DNA from: an uncultured Acidobacteriota bacterium | GTDB lineage: Bacteria > Acidobacteriota > Vicinamibacteria > Vicinamibacterales > UBA2999 | Direction: 5' to 3' | Length of the DNA stretch: 64,000 nt | Assembly (NCBI GenBank): GCA_963709325.1 | Contig: CAVPVV010000003.1 | Span: forward strand, 1,391,110-1,455,109 | Shown: piece after piece, positions 12,377-16,331 of the stretch | Layout: each line of letters begins with the position of its first letter | How positions within the stretch are numbered: position 1 is the first letter of the stretch | Notes under the pieces: generated by a model | Databases searched by the model: none | Told to the model about the DNA's origin: nothing | Seen by the model: only the letters and a program-made list of their open reading frames with translations | Program-made: the position numbers and the translations under genes

Positions 12377-12397
12377 AGGGGGGCGGCCGACGCGGTC

Positions 12398-12446
12398 AAG
12401 GCAGAAGGCACAAGGCAAAAGGCACAAGGCAGAAGGCACAAGGCAG
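12398..12446 (+). repeat. Heptamer tandem array (AAGGCAV)x7
   Basis: aaggcag aaggcac aaggcaa aaggcac aaggcag aaggcac aaggcag. Confidence 0.95.
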
Positions 12447-12483
12447 AACAAGACCCGGGGCTAACCGCGTGGAAGGAACAGCC

Positions 12484-13680
12484 GTGACCGGCGGCGGCGA
12501 ACTGCGTCGAAGACTGCGGATCCTGTTGGTGACGATTGGAGGCTCTGCCTTTCGTTTTTCGCCTTTTGCCTTCTGCCTTCTGCCTTTTGCCTTCTGCCTT
12601 CTGCCTTTTGCCTTCTCGCCCGCCGCGGCCGAGGCGCCCCGGCGCGGCCTCACCGCGGGCGAGTTGGTGGCCTCCGCGTATGACGTCGCGCTCGACGCCG
12701 ACTTCGATCGGATGCCGGAAGTCCTGGCGACGACCTGCGGCCCGGCACCACGGGTTGCCTGCCTCGGATTACAGGCGCTCTCGACCTGGTGGGAGATCCT
12801 GCTCGATCCGCAGAGCCGGTTTCTCGATTCGCGGTTCCTCCGCGAGACGGACGAAGCGATCGCCGAGGCGCAGGCATGGACGACGCGGGAACCCGAGCGT
12901 GCCGAGGCGTGGTTCTACCTGGGCGCGGCGCTCGGCGCGCGCGGCCAATGGCGCGTCCTGCGCGAGGAGCGGCTCGCCGCGGCGAGAGACGGCAAGCGGA
13001 TCAAGGCCGCGCTCGAGCATGCCCTCGCCCTGGATCCCGACATGGACGATGCGTCGTTCGGAATCGGCGCCTACCGCTACTACGCCGACATCGCGCCCGC
13101 CTACCTCCGCTGGTTACGCTGGCTGTTCCTGCTGCCGGGCGGCAATCGCGCCGCCGGCCTCGCGCAGATGGAGGAGGCGAGCCGCTCGGGCGTGCTCGTC
13201 CGTGCCGAAGCGCAGTATCAACTGCACATCGTCTACCTCTGGTACGAGCAGCGCTTCATGGACGCGCTCGCGATCGTGCGCGGGCTCCACGCGCGCTATC
13301 CCCACAACCCGCTGTTTCACCAGATCGAGGCCGAGATCCTCGACGTCTACGTGCACGACGCAGCGGCCAGCCTCGCCGCATCTGAGGCGCTCGTCGCCGA
13401 AGCGGAGCGCGGCGCGGTACACCGTCCCGAGCTGGCGCGAGTGCGCGCGACGCTCAACATCGCGGTGCAACTCGACCATCTCGGCCAGCGCGATCGCGCG
13501 CGGGCGATGCTCGACGCGTTGCTGGCGCGGACTCCGGCCGCGCCGATCGACGCGATCAACCGCGCCCGCCAACTTGCAGCGCGCGTGGTCGGTGCACTGA
13601 CGACTACAGATTTGCGCGGCTGCCGCCGACATTCTCGTTGTGGAGGGAAAAATCGGCCTAGCAAAAACGCGTTTCGTTGA
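12484..13680 (+). CDS. Exported TPR-like helical protein (C-terminal end uncertain, possibly 13600)
   Basis: GTG 12484 after GGAAGGAA; signal-peptide-like N-terminus; helical repeats AEAWFYLGAALG, ALALDPDMDDASFGIG, LHARYPHNP. Confidence 0.72.
   Translation: MTGGGELRRRLRILLVTIGGSAFRFSPFAFCLLPFAFCLLPFAFSPAAAEAPRRGLTAGELVASAYDVALDADFDRMPEVLATTCGPAPRVACLGLQALSTWWEILLDPQSRFLDSRFLRETDEAIAEAQAWTTREPERAEAWFYLGAALGARGQWRVLREERLAAARDGKRIKAALEHALALDPDMDDASFGIGAYRYYADIAPAYLRWLRWLFLLPGGNRAAGLAQMEEASRSGVLVRAEAQYQLHIVYLWYEQRFMDALAIVRGLHARYPHNPLFHQIEAEILDVYVHDAAASLAASEALVAEAERGAVHRPELARVRATLNIAVQLDHLGQRDRARAMLDALLARTPAAPIDAINRARQLAARVVGALTTTDLRGCRRHSRCGGKNRPSKNAFR
12545..12614 (-). repeat. Heptamer array of about 10 units, inverted relative to 12398-12446
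   Basis: Plus strand ctgcctt/ttgcctt units with two degenerate units; in frame within the TPR gene N-terminus. Confidence 0.95.
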
Positions 13681-13701
13681 CAACCACAAAACGCTTTCTG
13701 C

Positions 13702-13731
13702 TTGACAACGGAGATTTCTCATCCATAATCT
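13702..13731 (+). promoter_or_regulatory. Sigma70-type promoter of the micro-peptide unit
   Basis: TTGACA 13702-13707 with CATAAT (16-bp spacer) or TAATCT (18-bp spacer). Confidence 0.7.
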
Positions 13732-13821
13732 ACATCTGGTATGAGGGCGTAAGGCTCAGGCCACGGCTTGTGAGCAAGCCGGGGCTGCCATCAGGCAGAG
13801 CCCAGCCCTTCAGGAGGCCAA

Positions 13822-13878
13822 ATGGCGAAGAAGGCAAAGAAGGCGGCGAAGAAGGCGAAGAAGGCAAAGAAGAAGTAA
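13822..13878 (+). CDS. 18-aa Lys/Ala-rich basic peptide MAKKAKKAAKKAKKAKKK
   Basis: ATG...TAA; SD CAGGAGG just upstream; near-identical paralogue downstream. Confidence 0.82.
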   Translation: MAKKAKKAAKKAKKAKKK

Positions 13879-14067
13879 GCATCGCCGCTTACCAGGGGCG
13901 GTGATCCACACTGCCCCACCTTTCCGCAATCGCGCGCTCACAGACCGCGGCGCGCAGCAAGGCGCAGGGAGCCGGCACCCGCGAGCCGAGTGCCAGGCGG
14001 CAGAAGCTACCGCAGGTGGCGCGGCAACCTTGACGCATAACCCAACCTGAAGGGGGGGATACGACCG

Positions 14068-14124
14068 ATGGCGAAGAAGGCGAAGAAGGCGGCCAAGAAG
14101 GCCAAGAAGGCGAAGAAGCGCTAA
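14068..14124 (+). CDS. 18-aa Lys/Ala-rich basic peptide MAKKAKKAAKKAKKAKKR
   Basis: ATG...TAA; purine-rich SD AAGGGGGGGA; differs from copy 1 by 4 synonymous changes plus K18R. Confidence 0.82.
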   Translation: MAKKAKKAAKKAKKAKKR

Positions 14125-14141
14125 GCTTCCGCCAGCAGATC

Positions 14142-14175
14142 AAAAAAGGGGACGCCGTCTGCGTCCCCTTTTTTT
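14142..14175. terminator. Bidirectional intrinsic terminator
   Basis: AAAAAA-GGGGACGC-cgtct-GCGTCCCC-TTTTTTT between convergent genes. Confidence 0.92.
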
Positions 14176-14192
14176 GCCCGCGCGATCGCGCG

Positions 14193-16331
14193 TCAGTGCT
14201 CGTCGCTGCCGATCCAGTTGACACCGTCCCACACGCGGATGGTGCGGATCGCATCCCACTGCTGCATCGAGTCCACCACGTCCATCCCAGTCACCACCTG
14301 GCCAAACACCGTGTAGCGTCCGTCGAGGTGCGGCTGCGGGGAGTGGGTGATGAAGAATTGGCTGCCGCCGGTGTCGGCCCAATCGAGTGCCATGCCGACC
14401 GTGCCGCGCACGTAGGGGCGTTGATTGATCTCGTCGCGAATCGTATAGCCGGGCCCGCCCTCGCCGTCTCCGCGCGGATCGCCGCCCTGGATTACGAAGT
14501 CGCCAACAACGCGATGCCAGGGGATGTTGTTGAAGAAGCCCTTCCGTACCAGCGCGGTGAAGTTCGCGACGGTCCGCGGTGCGTCGACGACCGCGAGCTC
14601 GATCTGAATGCTGCCATTCTCCGTGTCGATGTAGGCCATCGGCGTGTAGGCCGGGGCCATCAGCGCCGGAATCGCCGACAGCTCGGGCGCCAGCGGCGGC
14701 GGCGCCGGGGTCGCCGGTGGCGGCGCTGCGGCACCGTCGATGCCGCGCAGCAGCTCCGCGGCACGCAGCCGGATGGCCCACTCAGGGTCGGCAAGCGCGC
14801 GCTGCAAAGCAGGCACTGCGGTAGCGCGATCGAGCGCCGCCATCGCGGAGAGGATCGCCGCGCGCGCCACGTAGGTGTTGTCCGATGCGGAGGCCTCCAG
14901 CGCGGTAGCCAAGGCGGGCGCCTGGTCCGAGGCCTTGATGCGCGCGAGGCCGTTGGCTGCCGCCATGCGCACCACGGGATCCTCGCTTCGCAGCCGCTCG
15001 ACCAGGGTCGTCTTCGCGTTGGCGGTGTTCAGCGCCGCCACCGCGGTGAGCACGGCCGGAATCACACGCTGATCGTCGTCGGTCAGCATCGTCGTCAGGC
15101 GAGCTTCGCCCAGTTTCCCGGGCAGTTCCGCGAGCGCGCCGGCCAGCGCGGCCCGCACCGACCAGTGCGGATCGGGGTCCAGCCCCGCGAGCACGCTGAT
15201 GAACGTCTCCGGATCGATCCGGGCGATGGCGACAAGAGCCGCGCTTCGCAAGGTCGGCCACGACGCCGAGGCGAGCTCGAGCAGCACGTCGATGGCCCCC
15301 TGGCTGCGCAGCTGGCCGAGCGCGACCACCCCTTCCATTTGCAGCGTTGGAACGGTCTTCGGCGTGGTGACCATCTTGAGAATCGACGGCGCTGCGGCGT
15401 GGGCGCCCATCGCCGCCAGTGCTCGTACCGCCTGGATGCGGACTGCCTTCGGCTGGGCGGCGTCGGCCACGATCGTCTCGAGCGCCGGCGCTGCGGCAGC
15501 GTGTTTCAGGACGCCGAGCCCACGCGCGGCGAAGGCTCGCGTGATCTGCCCCTCGGTCTGGAGCAAAGCGGTGAGCACCGGCGCCGCTCCGGGATTGTTG
15601 ATTCGCTGGAACGCGTAGGCCACCGGCCACCAGCTGCTGCGCACCGCGCCCGAGGAGTCGAGTGTCGCGCTCGACAACTCGTTGAAAGCGCCCAGCTGGA
15701 CGAGCGCATAGAGCCCCAGCCGCACGGCTTCGACAGGCGCGCTCTTCGGATAGCTGACGTCATCGGGGGCGATGTCGTTCAGCACGCCGGCGTTCACGTG
15801 CGCCGCGATCATCGTCGCGATCGCCGACGCCGACGACTTGTCGCCGATCTTGCCGAGGGCCTCGGCGGCGCGCCCCTGCAGCAACGGATCGGGATTGGCC
15901 AACGCAGTCGTCAGCGCCGTCGCCGCCGCCGGATCGGCGATCAGGCCAAGCGCGAAGGCTGCCATCTGCCGCACTTCCGGATCGGGCTCCTTCGCGAGCA
16001 TCGCCGACAGCGGTTCCACCGCCTCGACAATCCGGGCCCGTCCGACGCCCAGCGCGGCGCGCCGGCGGATGTGCGCCAGCGCATCCGAGAGCATCGCGAC
16101 CATGTCCTCTCCGGCTGCCTCAGCGCGGGCGACGCGCTGATCCTCGAGCTGGAGAATCCACCCGAGCTTCTGATCGGCGCTCGGCGGCGGAGGCGTGGGC
16201 ACGACCACCGGCGCGGCTTTCGGTCCACACCCGAGGGCGCAGATGACGCAGATAGCGCCGATGCCGCCGATGACGCGGTGCGAGGGACGAACGGAGGCGG
16301 CGGCGAGGGTTGCCGCGCCGGATCGCCTCAT
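14193..16331 (-). CDS. Lipoprotein with HEAT repeats and a C-terminal cyclophilin-type PPIase
   Basis: Lipobox ALGC; HEAT repeats (DPEVRQMAAFALG); HRVVGDFVIQGGDPRGDG, GSQFFIT and HLDGRYTVFGQV motifs. Confidence 0.9.
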   Translation of the reverse strand: MRRSGAATLAAASVRPSHRVIGGIGAICVICALGCGPKAAPVVVPTPPPPSADQKLGWILQLEDQRVARAEAAGEDMVAMLSDALAHIRRRAALGVGRARIVEAVEPLSAMLAKEPDPEVRQMAAFALGLIADPAAATALTTALANPDPLLQGRAAEALGKIGDKSSASAIATMIAAHVNAGVLNDIAPDDVSYPKSAPVEAVRLGLYALVQLGAFNELSSATLDSSGAVRSSWWPVAYAFQRINNPGAAPVLTALLQTEGQITRAFAARGLGVLKHAAAAPALETIVADAAQPKAVRIQAVRALAAMGAHAAAPSILKMVTTPKTVPTLQMEGVVALGQLRSQGAIDVLLELASASWPTLRSAALVAIARIDPETFISVLAGLDPDPHWSVRAALAGALAELPGKLGEARLTTMLTDDDQRVIPAVLTAVAALNTANAKTTLVERLRSEDPVVRMAAANGLARIKASDQAPALATALEASASDNTYVARAAILSAMAALDRATAVPALQRALADPEWAIRLRAAELLRGIDGAAAPPPATPAPPPLAPELSAIPALMAPAYTPMAYIDTENGSIQIELAVVDAPRTVANFTALVRKGFFNNIPWHRVVGDFVIQGGDPRGDGEGGPGYTIRDEINQRPYVRGTVGMALDWADTGGSQFFITHSPQPHLDGRYTVFGQVVTGMDVVDSMQQWDAIRTIRVWDGVNWIGSDEH

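Follow-up and report, generated by a model that had tools for sequence, protein, structure and literature searches.

A tandem pair of Lys/Ala micro-genes with its own transcription signals

The window investigated here is a stretch of 64,000 nt from an uncultured bacterium of the order Vicinamibacterales (Acidobacteriota; assembly GCA_963709325.1, contig CAVPVV010000003.1, positions 1,391,110 to 1,455,109 of the forward strand). It contains two very short open reading frames (ORFs), ORF1 and ORF2, which share the peptide MAKKAKKAAKKAKKAKK[K/R] and lie one behind the other in what has the layout of a complete, self-contained operon. The sequence-only reading had described this operon as a promoter, a leader, two Shine-Dalgarno (SD) sites, two 18-aa ORFs, a 189-nt spacer and a strong terminator, and all of these elements are present (Table 1). 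The two ORFs differ by synonymous Ala codons at positions 5, 9, 12 and 15 and by an exchange of AAG for CGC at codon 18 (K18R), exactly as had been stated. The form of the micro-protein without the initiator is expected to be des-Met AKKAKKAAKKAKKAKK[K/R]. That the flanks of the two ORFs are unrelated is mostly true, but not entirely, as the regions upstream of both ORF1 and ORF2 share a small UGCC-N4-GGCA hairpin.

The genome has a size of 6.87 Mb in 4 contigs, 66.9% G+C and an estimated completeness of 95.5%. Only six ATG-initiated ORFs of 9–61 aa with at least 35% Lys exist genome-wide, and ORF1 and ORF2 are two of these. The promoter fits the consensus at 11 of 12 positions and was the sole match in the 2 kb scanned (0.2 expected from shuffled sequences); the pattern TTGACA-N16-18-[CT]ATAAT occurs a single time in the whole genome, namely as the promoter of the operon. 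The rarity of short Lys-rich ORFs together with this once-only promoter pattern places the locus beyond chance.

The terminator folds with -24 kcal/mol (z = -4.77), and none of 200 shuffled sequences folded equally well; it was not listed by a simple terminator scan of the 2 kb but was recovered by folding. It is common to the operon and the convergent gene downstream, and equivalent hairpins are found in relatives. The hairpin behind ORF1 is weaker (-18 kcal/mol, z = -3.25). Its counterpart in other families is a full intrinsic terminator, with GGGGGUG...CACCCCC followed by U6-7 (loci L025, L028 and L074). The spacer motif GTGCCAGGCGGCAG is found in distant families, too, and in lineages without ORF1 it is kept and joined to the 5' leader.

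Table 1. Features of the micro-protein operon and of the adjoining convergent gene. Positions refer to the window.
Feature	Positions	Strand	Details and basis
Sigma-70-type promoter	13695..13729	+	upstream TTTCTGC block; -35 TTGACA at 13702-13707; 16-nt spacer; -10 CATAAT at 13724-13729
5' leader, ~90 nt	13732..13821	+	start inferred; first ~16 nt, ACAUCUGGUAUGAGGG, nearly invariant
Shine-Dalgarno site 1 (SD1), AGGAGG	13812..13817	+	sequence
ORF1, product MAKKAKKAAKKAKKAKKK, TAA stop	13822..13878	+	translation; orthologues in relatives
9-bp G+C hairpin 3' of ORF1, without U tract, ACCUUUCC	13895..13917	+	fold
Conserved spacer motif GTGCCAGGCGGCAG, small hairpin UGCC-AGGC-GGCA	13990..14003	+	comparison of relatives
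Extended Shine-Dalgarno site 2 (SD2), GAAGGGGGGGAU	14049..14060	+	pairing to 16S 3' end
ORF2, product MAKKAKKAAKKAKKAKKR, TAA stop	14068..14124	+	translation; orthologues in relatives
Bidirectional intrinsic terminator: A6, stem GGGGACGC/GCGUCCCC (8-bp G+C), T7	14142..14175	.	fold
HEAT-repeat and cyclophilin-type peptidyl-prolyl isomerase (PPIase), convergent	14193..16331	-	HEAT_2 1e-46, Pro_isomerase 3e-39

Coding capacity and selection on the peptide

The comparison is based on 153 loci with the promoter motif, some of which are the same record reached by two routes; 140 of the leaders are distinct. Two Lys-rich ORFs of the MAK... type are found at 98 of these loci, one at 52 and none at three, and these last three are segments of 115–150 nt which are cut by a contig end. 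Altogether, 150 of the 153 loci hold at least one MAKK...KK[R/K] ORF of 13–45 aa. The sequence-only reading had pointed to frame-breaking changes and missing start or stop codons in relatives as evidence that would speak against a peptide; instead, at least one ORF is intact at 150 of 150 untruncated loci, and it is ORF1 alone that has been lost or broken in some lineages.

From these loci 248 ORFs were obtained, of which 246 start with MAKK, 211 end with KKR and 31 with KKK. They are closed by TAA (151) or TAG (97) and never by TGA, the stop codon of 65% of 4,305 long frames in the genome (a crude set with some spurious frames). The 4,628 residues are 51% K, 27% A, 8% G, 4.7% R, 2.5% T and 0.6% V; only K, A, G, M, R, T, V, S, P and C are used, and there is not one D, E, N, Q, H, L, I, F, Y, W or non-initiator Met among them. 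The ORF filter required at least 40% K+R, so that an occasional acidic residue would have passed. An exchange of Lys to Glu was never seen, though a change from AAG to GAG preserves the purine run. By comparison, the long frames of the genome contain about 1.7% Lys and 12% Arg. The terminal Arg is written as CGG (99 cases), CGC (90) and with four other Arg codons. Gly-rich variants, for instance the 14-mer MAKKGGKKKGGKKR, are without a hydrophobic face.

Pairwise differences at codon positions 1, 2 and 3 amount to 1588, 2899 and 8802, respectively (66% at the third position; 1,739 same-length ORF pairs, which are not independent of each other). The set comprises 95 peptides encoded by 195 distinct DNA sequences, with up to 12 DNA sequences for one peptide. 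When identical peptides from different genomes were compared (643 pairs), the ORFs were 95% identical, but over the 30 nt before them the identity fell to 70% and over the 60 nt behind them to 50%. The third-position bias, the synonymous diversity and the higher identity of the ORFs compared to their flanks argue for translation and for purifying selection on the peptide. Selection at this level had been proposed from the two local copies and is borne out by the relatives as well; we consider it very likely that the micro-ORFs are translated and selected for their peptide.

Agreement, loss and length of the two gene copies

The peptide varies between clades, yet both copies within one genome agree. 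In 90 distinct two-gene loci the two peptides are identical in 26 cases and identical except for the last residue in 38. The DNA differs in each of the 49 same-length copy pairs, with 288 of 384 differences at third positions. Either the copies co-evolve by selection, or they become homogenised occasionally and then drift synonymously.

In one clade ORF1 has been deleted, joining the 5' leader to the upstream region of ORF2. The 24 second-slot loci of this clade have leaders of 166–276 nt and all encode the exact same 16-residue peptide, MAKKAKGGKKKAGKKR. These fusions show that ORF2, too, is transcribed from the promoter ahead of the leader. ORF1 is frameshifted in L074 and L130, of which at least L074 is a long-read metagenome-assembled genome (MAG) where an assembly error is possible, and it has lost its start codon in L160. 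Judged by these sequences, ORF1 is dispensable where ORF2 is present. Furthermore, 18 complete loci hold the first-slot gene alone, and in 13 of these it codes for 28–45 aa, about double the usual length.

Promoter, leader and expression signals

Part of the invariance of promoter and leader is imposed by the pattern with which the loci were selected. The elements TTTgTgC, ttTCTCatCCA, AGGG and gCUCAG.CCAcc..UuGUgA lie outside that pattern, and the first two, located before the -35 element and in the promoter spacer, respectively, are conserved in 142 distinct relatives. The promoter spacer in these relatives and the leader start ACAUCUKGUAUGAGGG in an alignment of 63 leaders are nearly invariant. 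According to BLAST, the leader is 74–97% identical between families of the order; the promoter and the first ~80 nt of the leader are the best-conserved part of the locus across families, above the ORFs. The near-invariant 5' end of the leader might serve as an operator or a feedback site, or it might govern how stable the RNA is or how it is processed. In relatives, a conserved T-rich block, TTTTTGAC, is located ~24 nt upstream of the -35 element. A second TTGACA (13677-13682) lies in the loop of a hairpin at 13669-13694, which is terminator-like on the minus strand and on the plus strand directly follows the gene for a tetratricopeptide repeat (TPR) protein.

The fold of the leader shows a long-range helix between GGCUC (~13753-13757) and GAGCC (~13797-13801), which encloses two hairpins; in relatives GCUCAG pairs with CUGAGC around a variable hairpin. 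In the alignment this helix corresponds to columns 23-28/80-86, where 89.7% of cells are paired, with a change from G-C to A-U in six sequences and to G-U in eleven. It is the sole leader helix with reasonable support. RNAalifold returned no consensus structure for the 63 leaders, because the variable middle part is misaligned. A helix P1 drawn by hand (columns 15-19/30-34) is weak, with just 78% of cells paired, and an alternative distal partner (16-19/89-92) is paired in 69% and has many gaps. Therefore, neither a pseudoknot nor a switch is claimed for the leader. The near-invariant 5' end (13732-13747 and 13741-13775) contains an AUG whose frame in the 63 leaders, judged by eye, usually closes about ten codons further on at a conserved UUGUGA, UAGUGA or UUGUAA. 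Early stops in several lineages, such as AUG AGG GCG UAA in the window and AUG UAG in L035, L037 and L161, speak against a conserved upstream ORF peptide starting from it.

With regard to translation, GGAG or GAGG is located upstream of 119 out of 120 first-slot ORFs, and a run of at least six G upstream of 123 out of 128 second-slot ORFs. The 16S rRNA of this genome ends with ...GGAUCACCUCCUUUCU. SD2, with its G7 run inside GAAGGGGGGGAT, can pair with this end at 11 of 12 positions (9 Watson-Crick and 2 G-U pairs; manual pairing), which explains the conservation of the G7 run and of the AU after it.

Six metatranscriptome runs from six soil or rhizosphere studies contain 35–39% of the sampled 31-mers of the stretch in their assembled contigs, even small runs of 17 and 105 million letters being among them. 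Since the locus is single-copy and belongs to one soil lineage, its RNA may be very abundant, although such word sharing is suggestive only. Promoter, T-rich block upstream of the -35 element, SD sites, TAA/TAG stops and terminator look as if each step had been tuned for maximal output. From such signals, expression of the locus is probably very high.

Distribution within the Acidobacteriota

A 501-nt query from the locus has matches in 39 of 41 genomes of the same order, its own included; the two without a match are G010, which is 62% complete, and G033. We extended the search with the pattern of promoter and leader to one genome per prokaryotic species, and at least 120 records matched. Among the matches listed, 76 out of 80 titles name Acidobacteria, Acidobacteriota or Vicinamibacter-; the other four, all of them MAGs, are labelled as a cyanobacterium, Woeseiaceae, Acidimicrobiia and 'uncultured bacterium'.

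An even sample of 401 Acidobacteriota genomes was then screened with a strict pattern for the peptide gene. It was found in 23 genomes, all of them in Vicinamibacterales, and in 22 of 36 when only the sampled members of the order besides the genome of the window are counted. No match was obtained in the 364 genomes outside the order, that is, in the two genomes of the other order of the class and in 362 genomes of other classes. BLAST detected the leader in 29 of the 36 sampled genomes of the order, and outside of it gave one weak match of 29 nt. The element thus seems restricted to Vicinamibacterales, an order that is named here after the record titles.

Database searches and Lys-rich genes elsewhere in the genome

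The sequence-only reading had called the system possibly undescribed, and we found no description of it in Pfam, NCBIfam, Rfam, the PDB or the literature, the latter at the level of titles and abstract openings. In the region 13000-15000, searched against Rfam at E <=10, no family reached its gathering score; the best scores were 23.9 bits against a required 42 and 23.1 against 114, both on the terminator hairpin only. Four homologues of 23–36 aa gave nothing in Pfam and NCBIfam at E <=10 except one meaningless match at E 0.56. A PDB sequence search with the 23-aa and 45-aa homologues gave 0 matches. A protein search with the 45-aa homologue P0001 yielded 95 word-sharing candidates and none at E <=0.001, which probably reflects a composition filter and is thus no evidence that the database lacks the peptide. 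In titles and abstract openings there was no match to the peptide strings and nothing else of relevance.

The same genome codes for a protein of 112 aa with a SWIB/MDM2 domain (G000:C4:608282-608617, minus strand; L002 1200-1535; Pfam 1.3e-29) and an N-terminal A/K tail of ~35 residues. The 12 residues with which it begins, MAKKAKKAAKKA, also begin both micro-ORFs. In this protein the tail is fused to a SWIB fold of 74 residues, whereas the micro-ORFs stand alone. Relatives with A/K tails of variable length occur in families f1 and f6, and among the 41 genomes the SWIB protein was found only there, in contrast to the order-wide micro-ORFs. No co-variation between the SWIB tail and the micro-ORF sequence was seen across genomes. 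In the one family of the order that lacks the element, HU was examined for a complementary tail; the single cleanly read HU sequence (G033) is without a K-rich tail, the other loci being unreliable in orientation.

A third stand-alone Lys-rich micro-ORF, MPKDEKPGGMSGKRGAKKKAKAKKAKKK (28 aa), is located at G000:C3:1716632-1716718 on the plus strand (L004 1456-1542), between a plus-strand gene and a convergent gene. It has a GAGGAGG SD sequence and a TGA stop. By BLAST, G001, the closest relative, is the only genome to match it over the full length (88%), and a few others match in part.

Genomic neighbourhood

The gene order around the operon is tgt (minus strand), ddl (plus), TPR protein (plus), operon, HEAT-cyclophilin (minus) and a gene for an enzyme of the MR/MLE type (minus). 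Synteny with the cyclophilin gene, which the sequence-only reading had suggested as a check in relatives, turned out to be extensive: of 114 loci with enough flanking sequence, 110 have the gene in convergent orientation at a distance of up to 1.5 kb. Three of the remaining four have it close by but arranged differently, and at the last one it was not found. In L136 and L153 it lies upstream of the promoter on the same strand, which looks like a local inversion that kept the adjacency. A TPR gene precedes the operon in 63 of 112 loci. The N-terminus of the PPIase is a lipoprotein-type signal, with the lipobox recognised by judgement, and its orthologue persists in f10, the family of the order that lacks the micro-ORFs. 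Because of these two features the synteny gives no functional clue, and in our view the genes have stayed linked by inertia around the terminator they have in common, not because they act together.

Between ddl and the TPR gene lie inverted heptad tandem repeats (12397-12448 and 12546-12616), consisting of (CAAGGCA)n and its complement (TGCCTTT/TGCCTTC)n, with 94–100% matches at periods 14 and 21. Frames that read QKAKGKRQKAKG occur at six further sites of the genome, which suggests a dispersed purine-rich repeat element. The repeat period of 7 marks this element as non-coding, unlike the micro-ORFs.

Proposed function and alternatives

In the explanation that we tentatively prefer, though we would not count on it as a whole, the locus would be a dedicated, maximally expressed operon, reduced to a single gene in many relatives, for polycationic Lys/Ala(/Gly) micro-proteins of 13–45 residues. 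Transcription would start from the near-perfect sigma-70 promoter and run through the conserved structured leader to the strong terminator, and both cistrons, closed by TAA or TAG, would be translated from their very strong SD sites. The products, which are too short and too low in complexity to fold, would be soluble, disordered polycations which act in bulk, binding nucleic acid and neutralising or condensing it, and would form a free-standing counterpart of the Lys/Ala tails known from histone H1, chlamydial Hc1/Hc2 and mycobacterial HupB. Nucleoid DNA would be the first choice as a target, and rRNA or ribosomes the second. The anatomy of the locus, its conservation and the selection on the peptide are established by the sequences; the high abundance and all binding are inferred. 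The sequence-only reading had suggested nucleic acid, the ribosome or polyphosphate as the target, and the case for each of them is made from composition. Considered by itself, binding to nucleic acid of some kind, which composition and evolution point to, appears somewhat better founded than its opposite.

A/K tails bind DNA in histone H1, Hc1/Hc2, HupB and Pseudomonas AlgP, and a strong preference for Lys/Ala over Arg is their hallmark. The micro-proteins resemble them in the AKK/KKA low complexity, in a large excess of Lys over Arg despite a high G+C content, in the variable repeat number and in predicted disorder. However, such tails comprise 60–200 residues and are part of or form larger proteins, whereas here 13–45 residues are the whole product; there is no attachment to a folded DNA-binding domain, no family model of H1, Hc1 or HupB matched, and the genes possess their own promoter, leader and terminator, often in two copies. 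Lys/Ala polycation chemistry is known, and the new form is the stand-alone product of 13–45 residues with an order-wide promoter and leader, often from two co-evolving copies. Variable length, variable copy number and the loss in f10 fit nucleoid-protein tails better than ribosomal proteins. Therefore, the preference for Lys over Arg, the SWIB tail and the variation in length and copy number favour a polycation acting on DNA first.

Several points weigh against this explanation. The existence of the peptide and its binding to anything are deduced on indirect grounds, and the composition would suit binding of RNA or polyphosphate equally well. In f10 the leader was found in just one of seven genomes and the peptide pattern in none of the seven; five near-complete f10 genomes hold no K-rich ORF within ~1.5 kb of the PPIase orthologue, nor does a looser MAKK pattern occur anywhere in them. 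The near-absence from this family argues that the element is dispensable. HU/IHF homologues are present in the genome of the window, leaving no obvious gap among its nucleoid proteins. Finally, 24 loci share one exact 16-residue peptide and the paralogues change in parallel, both of which speak for a specific partner and against bulk charge, and for a specific partner a ribosomal or other defined RNA site fits at least as well as DNA.

This leads to the foremost alternative, a lineage-specific tiny ribosomal, ribosome-associated or hibernation peptide which sits in an rRNA pocket and is feedback-controlled through the leader. Basic ribosomal proteins of this size are known from single lineages: bTHX with 26, bS22 with 33, bL37 with 24 and eL41 with 25 aa. 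The micro-proteins share with them the size class, a very high positive charge, stand-alone genes and the restriction to a single lineage; the expression signals are in the class expected for ribosomal protein genes, the leader is both conserved and structured, and the exact peptide conservation within clades with parallel change of paralogues fits as well. The universal motif of the 16S 3' region has one match in the assembly (G000:C3:3513247, plus strand), which suggests a single rRNA operon and is also consistent with such a role. We know of no ribosome structure from this order. On the other hand, the known tiny ribosomal proteins, with 24–33 residues, are of fixed length and Arg-rich with mixed Arg/Lys, whereas here the length varies from 13 to 45 residues, the copy number is one or two, the composition is essentially Lys/Ala only, and the element was not found in six of the seven f10 genomes sampled. 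No PDB chain matched, and the Thx profile (PF17070) gave no match in a six-frame search of the whole genome including the locus, while a Thermus control was positive. The micro-peptides do not replace a missing small ribosomal protein such as bS21 or bL36, since both are present, and mimicry of rRNA by leader or spacer was rejected with a best match to the own rRNA operon of 10 nt (E = 0.36). Taken together, a ribosomal role appears unlikely, though it deserves to be taken seriously.

A bulk polycation may also serve polyanions other than nucleic acid, such as polyphosphate granules or anionic envelope polymers, or act as a coacervate-forming charge buffer. The same arguments from composition apply to it, and variable length and dosage fit bulk charge. 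Nothing specific speaks in its favour, there is no polyphosphate gene among the neighbours, and with genes for spermine-synthase-like and Orn/DAP-decarboxylase domains present there is no sign of a replacement of polyamines; we regard this possibility as improbable.

Still less probable is that translation itself is the function and that the Lys-codon mini-ORFs sense the supply of lysyl-tRNA or ribosomes and so control whether the hairpin is read through or how stable the RNA is. ORF1, with 11 Lys codons out of 18, and the hairpin behind it, a full terminator in other families, resemble the leader peptides of his, trp and thr attenuators, which are likewise very short and dominated by one codon type, and leader and spacer motif are conserved. 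Attenuators, however, regulate downstream structural genes, and here none follows: ORF2 is succeeded by the terminator and a convergent gene. In many lineages there is only one ORF, and the hairpin lies 17–21 nt beyond the stop, presumably too far to be masked by a terminating ribosome. Moreover, the non-Lys positions, the MAKK start and the C-terminal Arg are kept at the protein level through synonymous changes, as expected for a peptide under purifying selection.

A role of the products outside the cell, as cationic peptides for antimicrobial action or competition after export or release, is hardly to be expected. They are indeed short, cationic and tandem-encoded; but cationic amphipathic antimicrobial peptides and type I toxins have a hydrophobic face or a transmembrane segment, which is absent here (no L, I, F, W or Y), most clearly in the Gly-rich variants, and there is neither a signal peptide nor a transporter or immunity gene nearby. 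The lack of a hydrophobic face and the short, simple sequence argue against membrane activity or a toxin. The weakest candidate, a non-coding RNA or a purine-rich simple repeat that is open in this frame by chance, can draw on A/G-rich sequence being stop-free in every frame, on a unit period of 9/21 at which slippage preserves the frame, on the non-coding AAGGCA-type heptads elsewhere in the genome and on a conservation of the leader which exceeds that of the ORFs, but is scarcely credible in view of the concentration of changes at third codon positions, the ATG, SD sequence and TAA/TAG stop kept at every untruncated locus, the complete lack of Glu, Asp, Asn and Gln codons, the final Arg written in six synonymous codons and the missing Rfam family.

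Significance

The most far-reaching reading of the locus is that a genetically encoded free polycation ranks among the most abundant products of Vicinamibacterales, either as the smallest chromatin protein known from bacteria or as a new peptide of the ribosome or of ribosome hibernation, with copies kept identical at the protein level by selection or gene conversion. To us this is a rather doubtful prospect, though not a far-fetched one. If true, the micro-protein has escaped annotation by being below every ORF cut-off and destroyed by trypsin, and the Lys/Ala chemistry of histone tails would extend to a minimal, separately regulated gene product. It would also offer a very simple natural system for the use of polycations by bacteria on DNA, RNA or ribosomes. 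Vicinamibacterales are one of the dominant bacterial orders in soil. If the peptide is made at the level which its signals indicate, a major component of this globally abundant soil lineage would be invisible to gene callers, domain databases and trypsin-based proteomics. For this poorly cultured order, finally, the near-invariant promoter and leader provide a ready marker and may also serve as a strong expression element.

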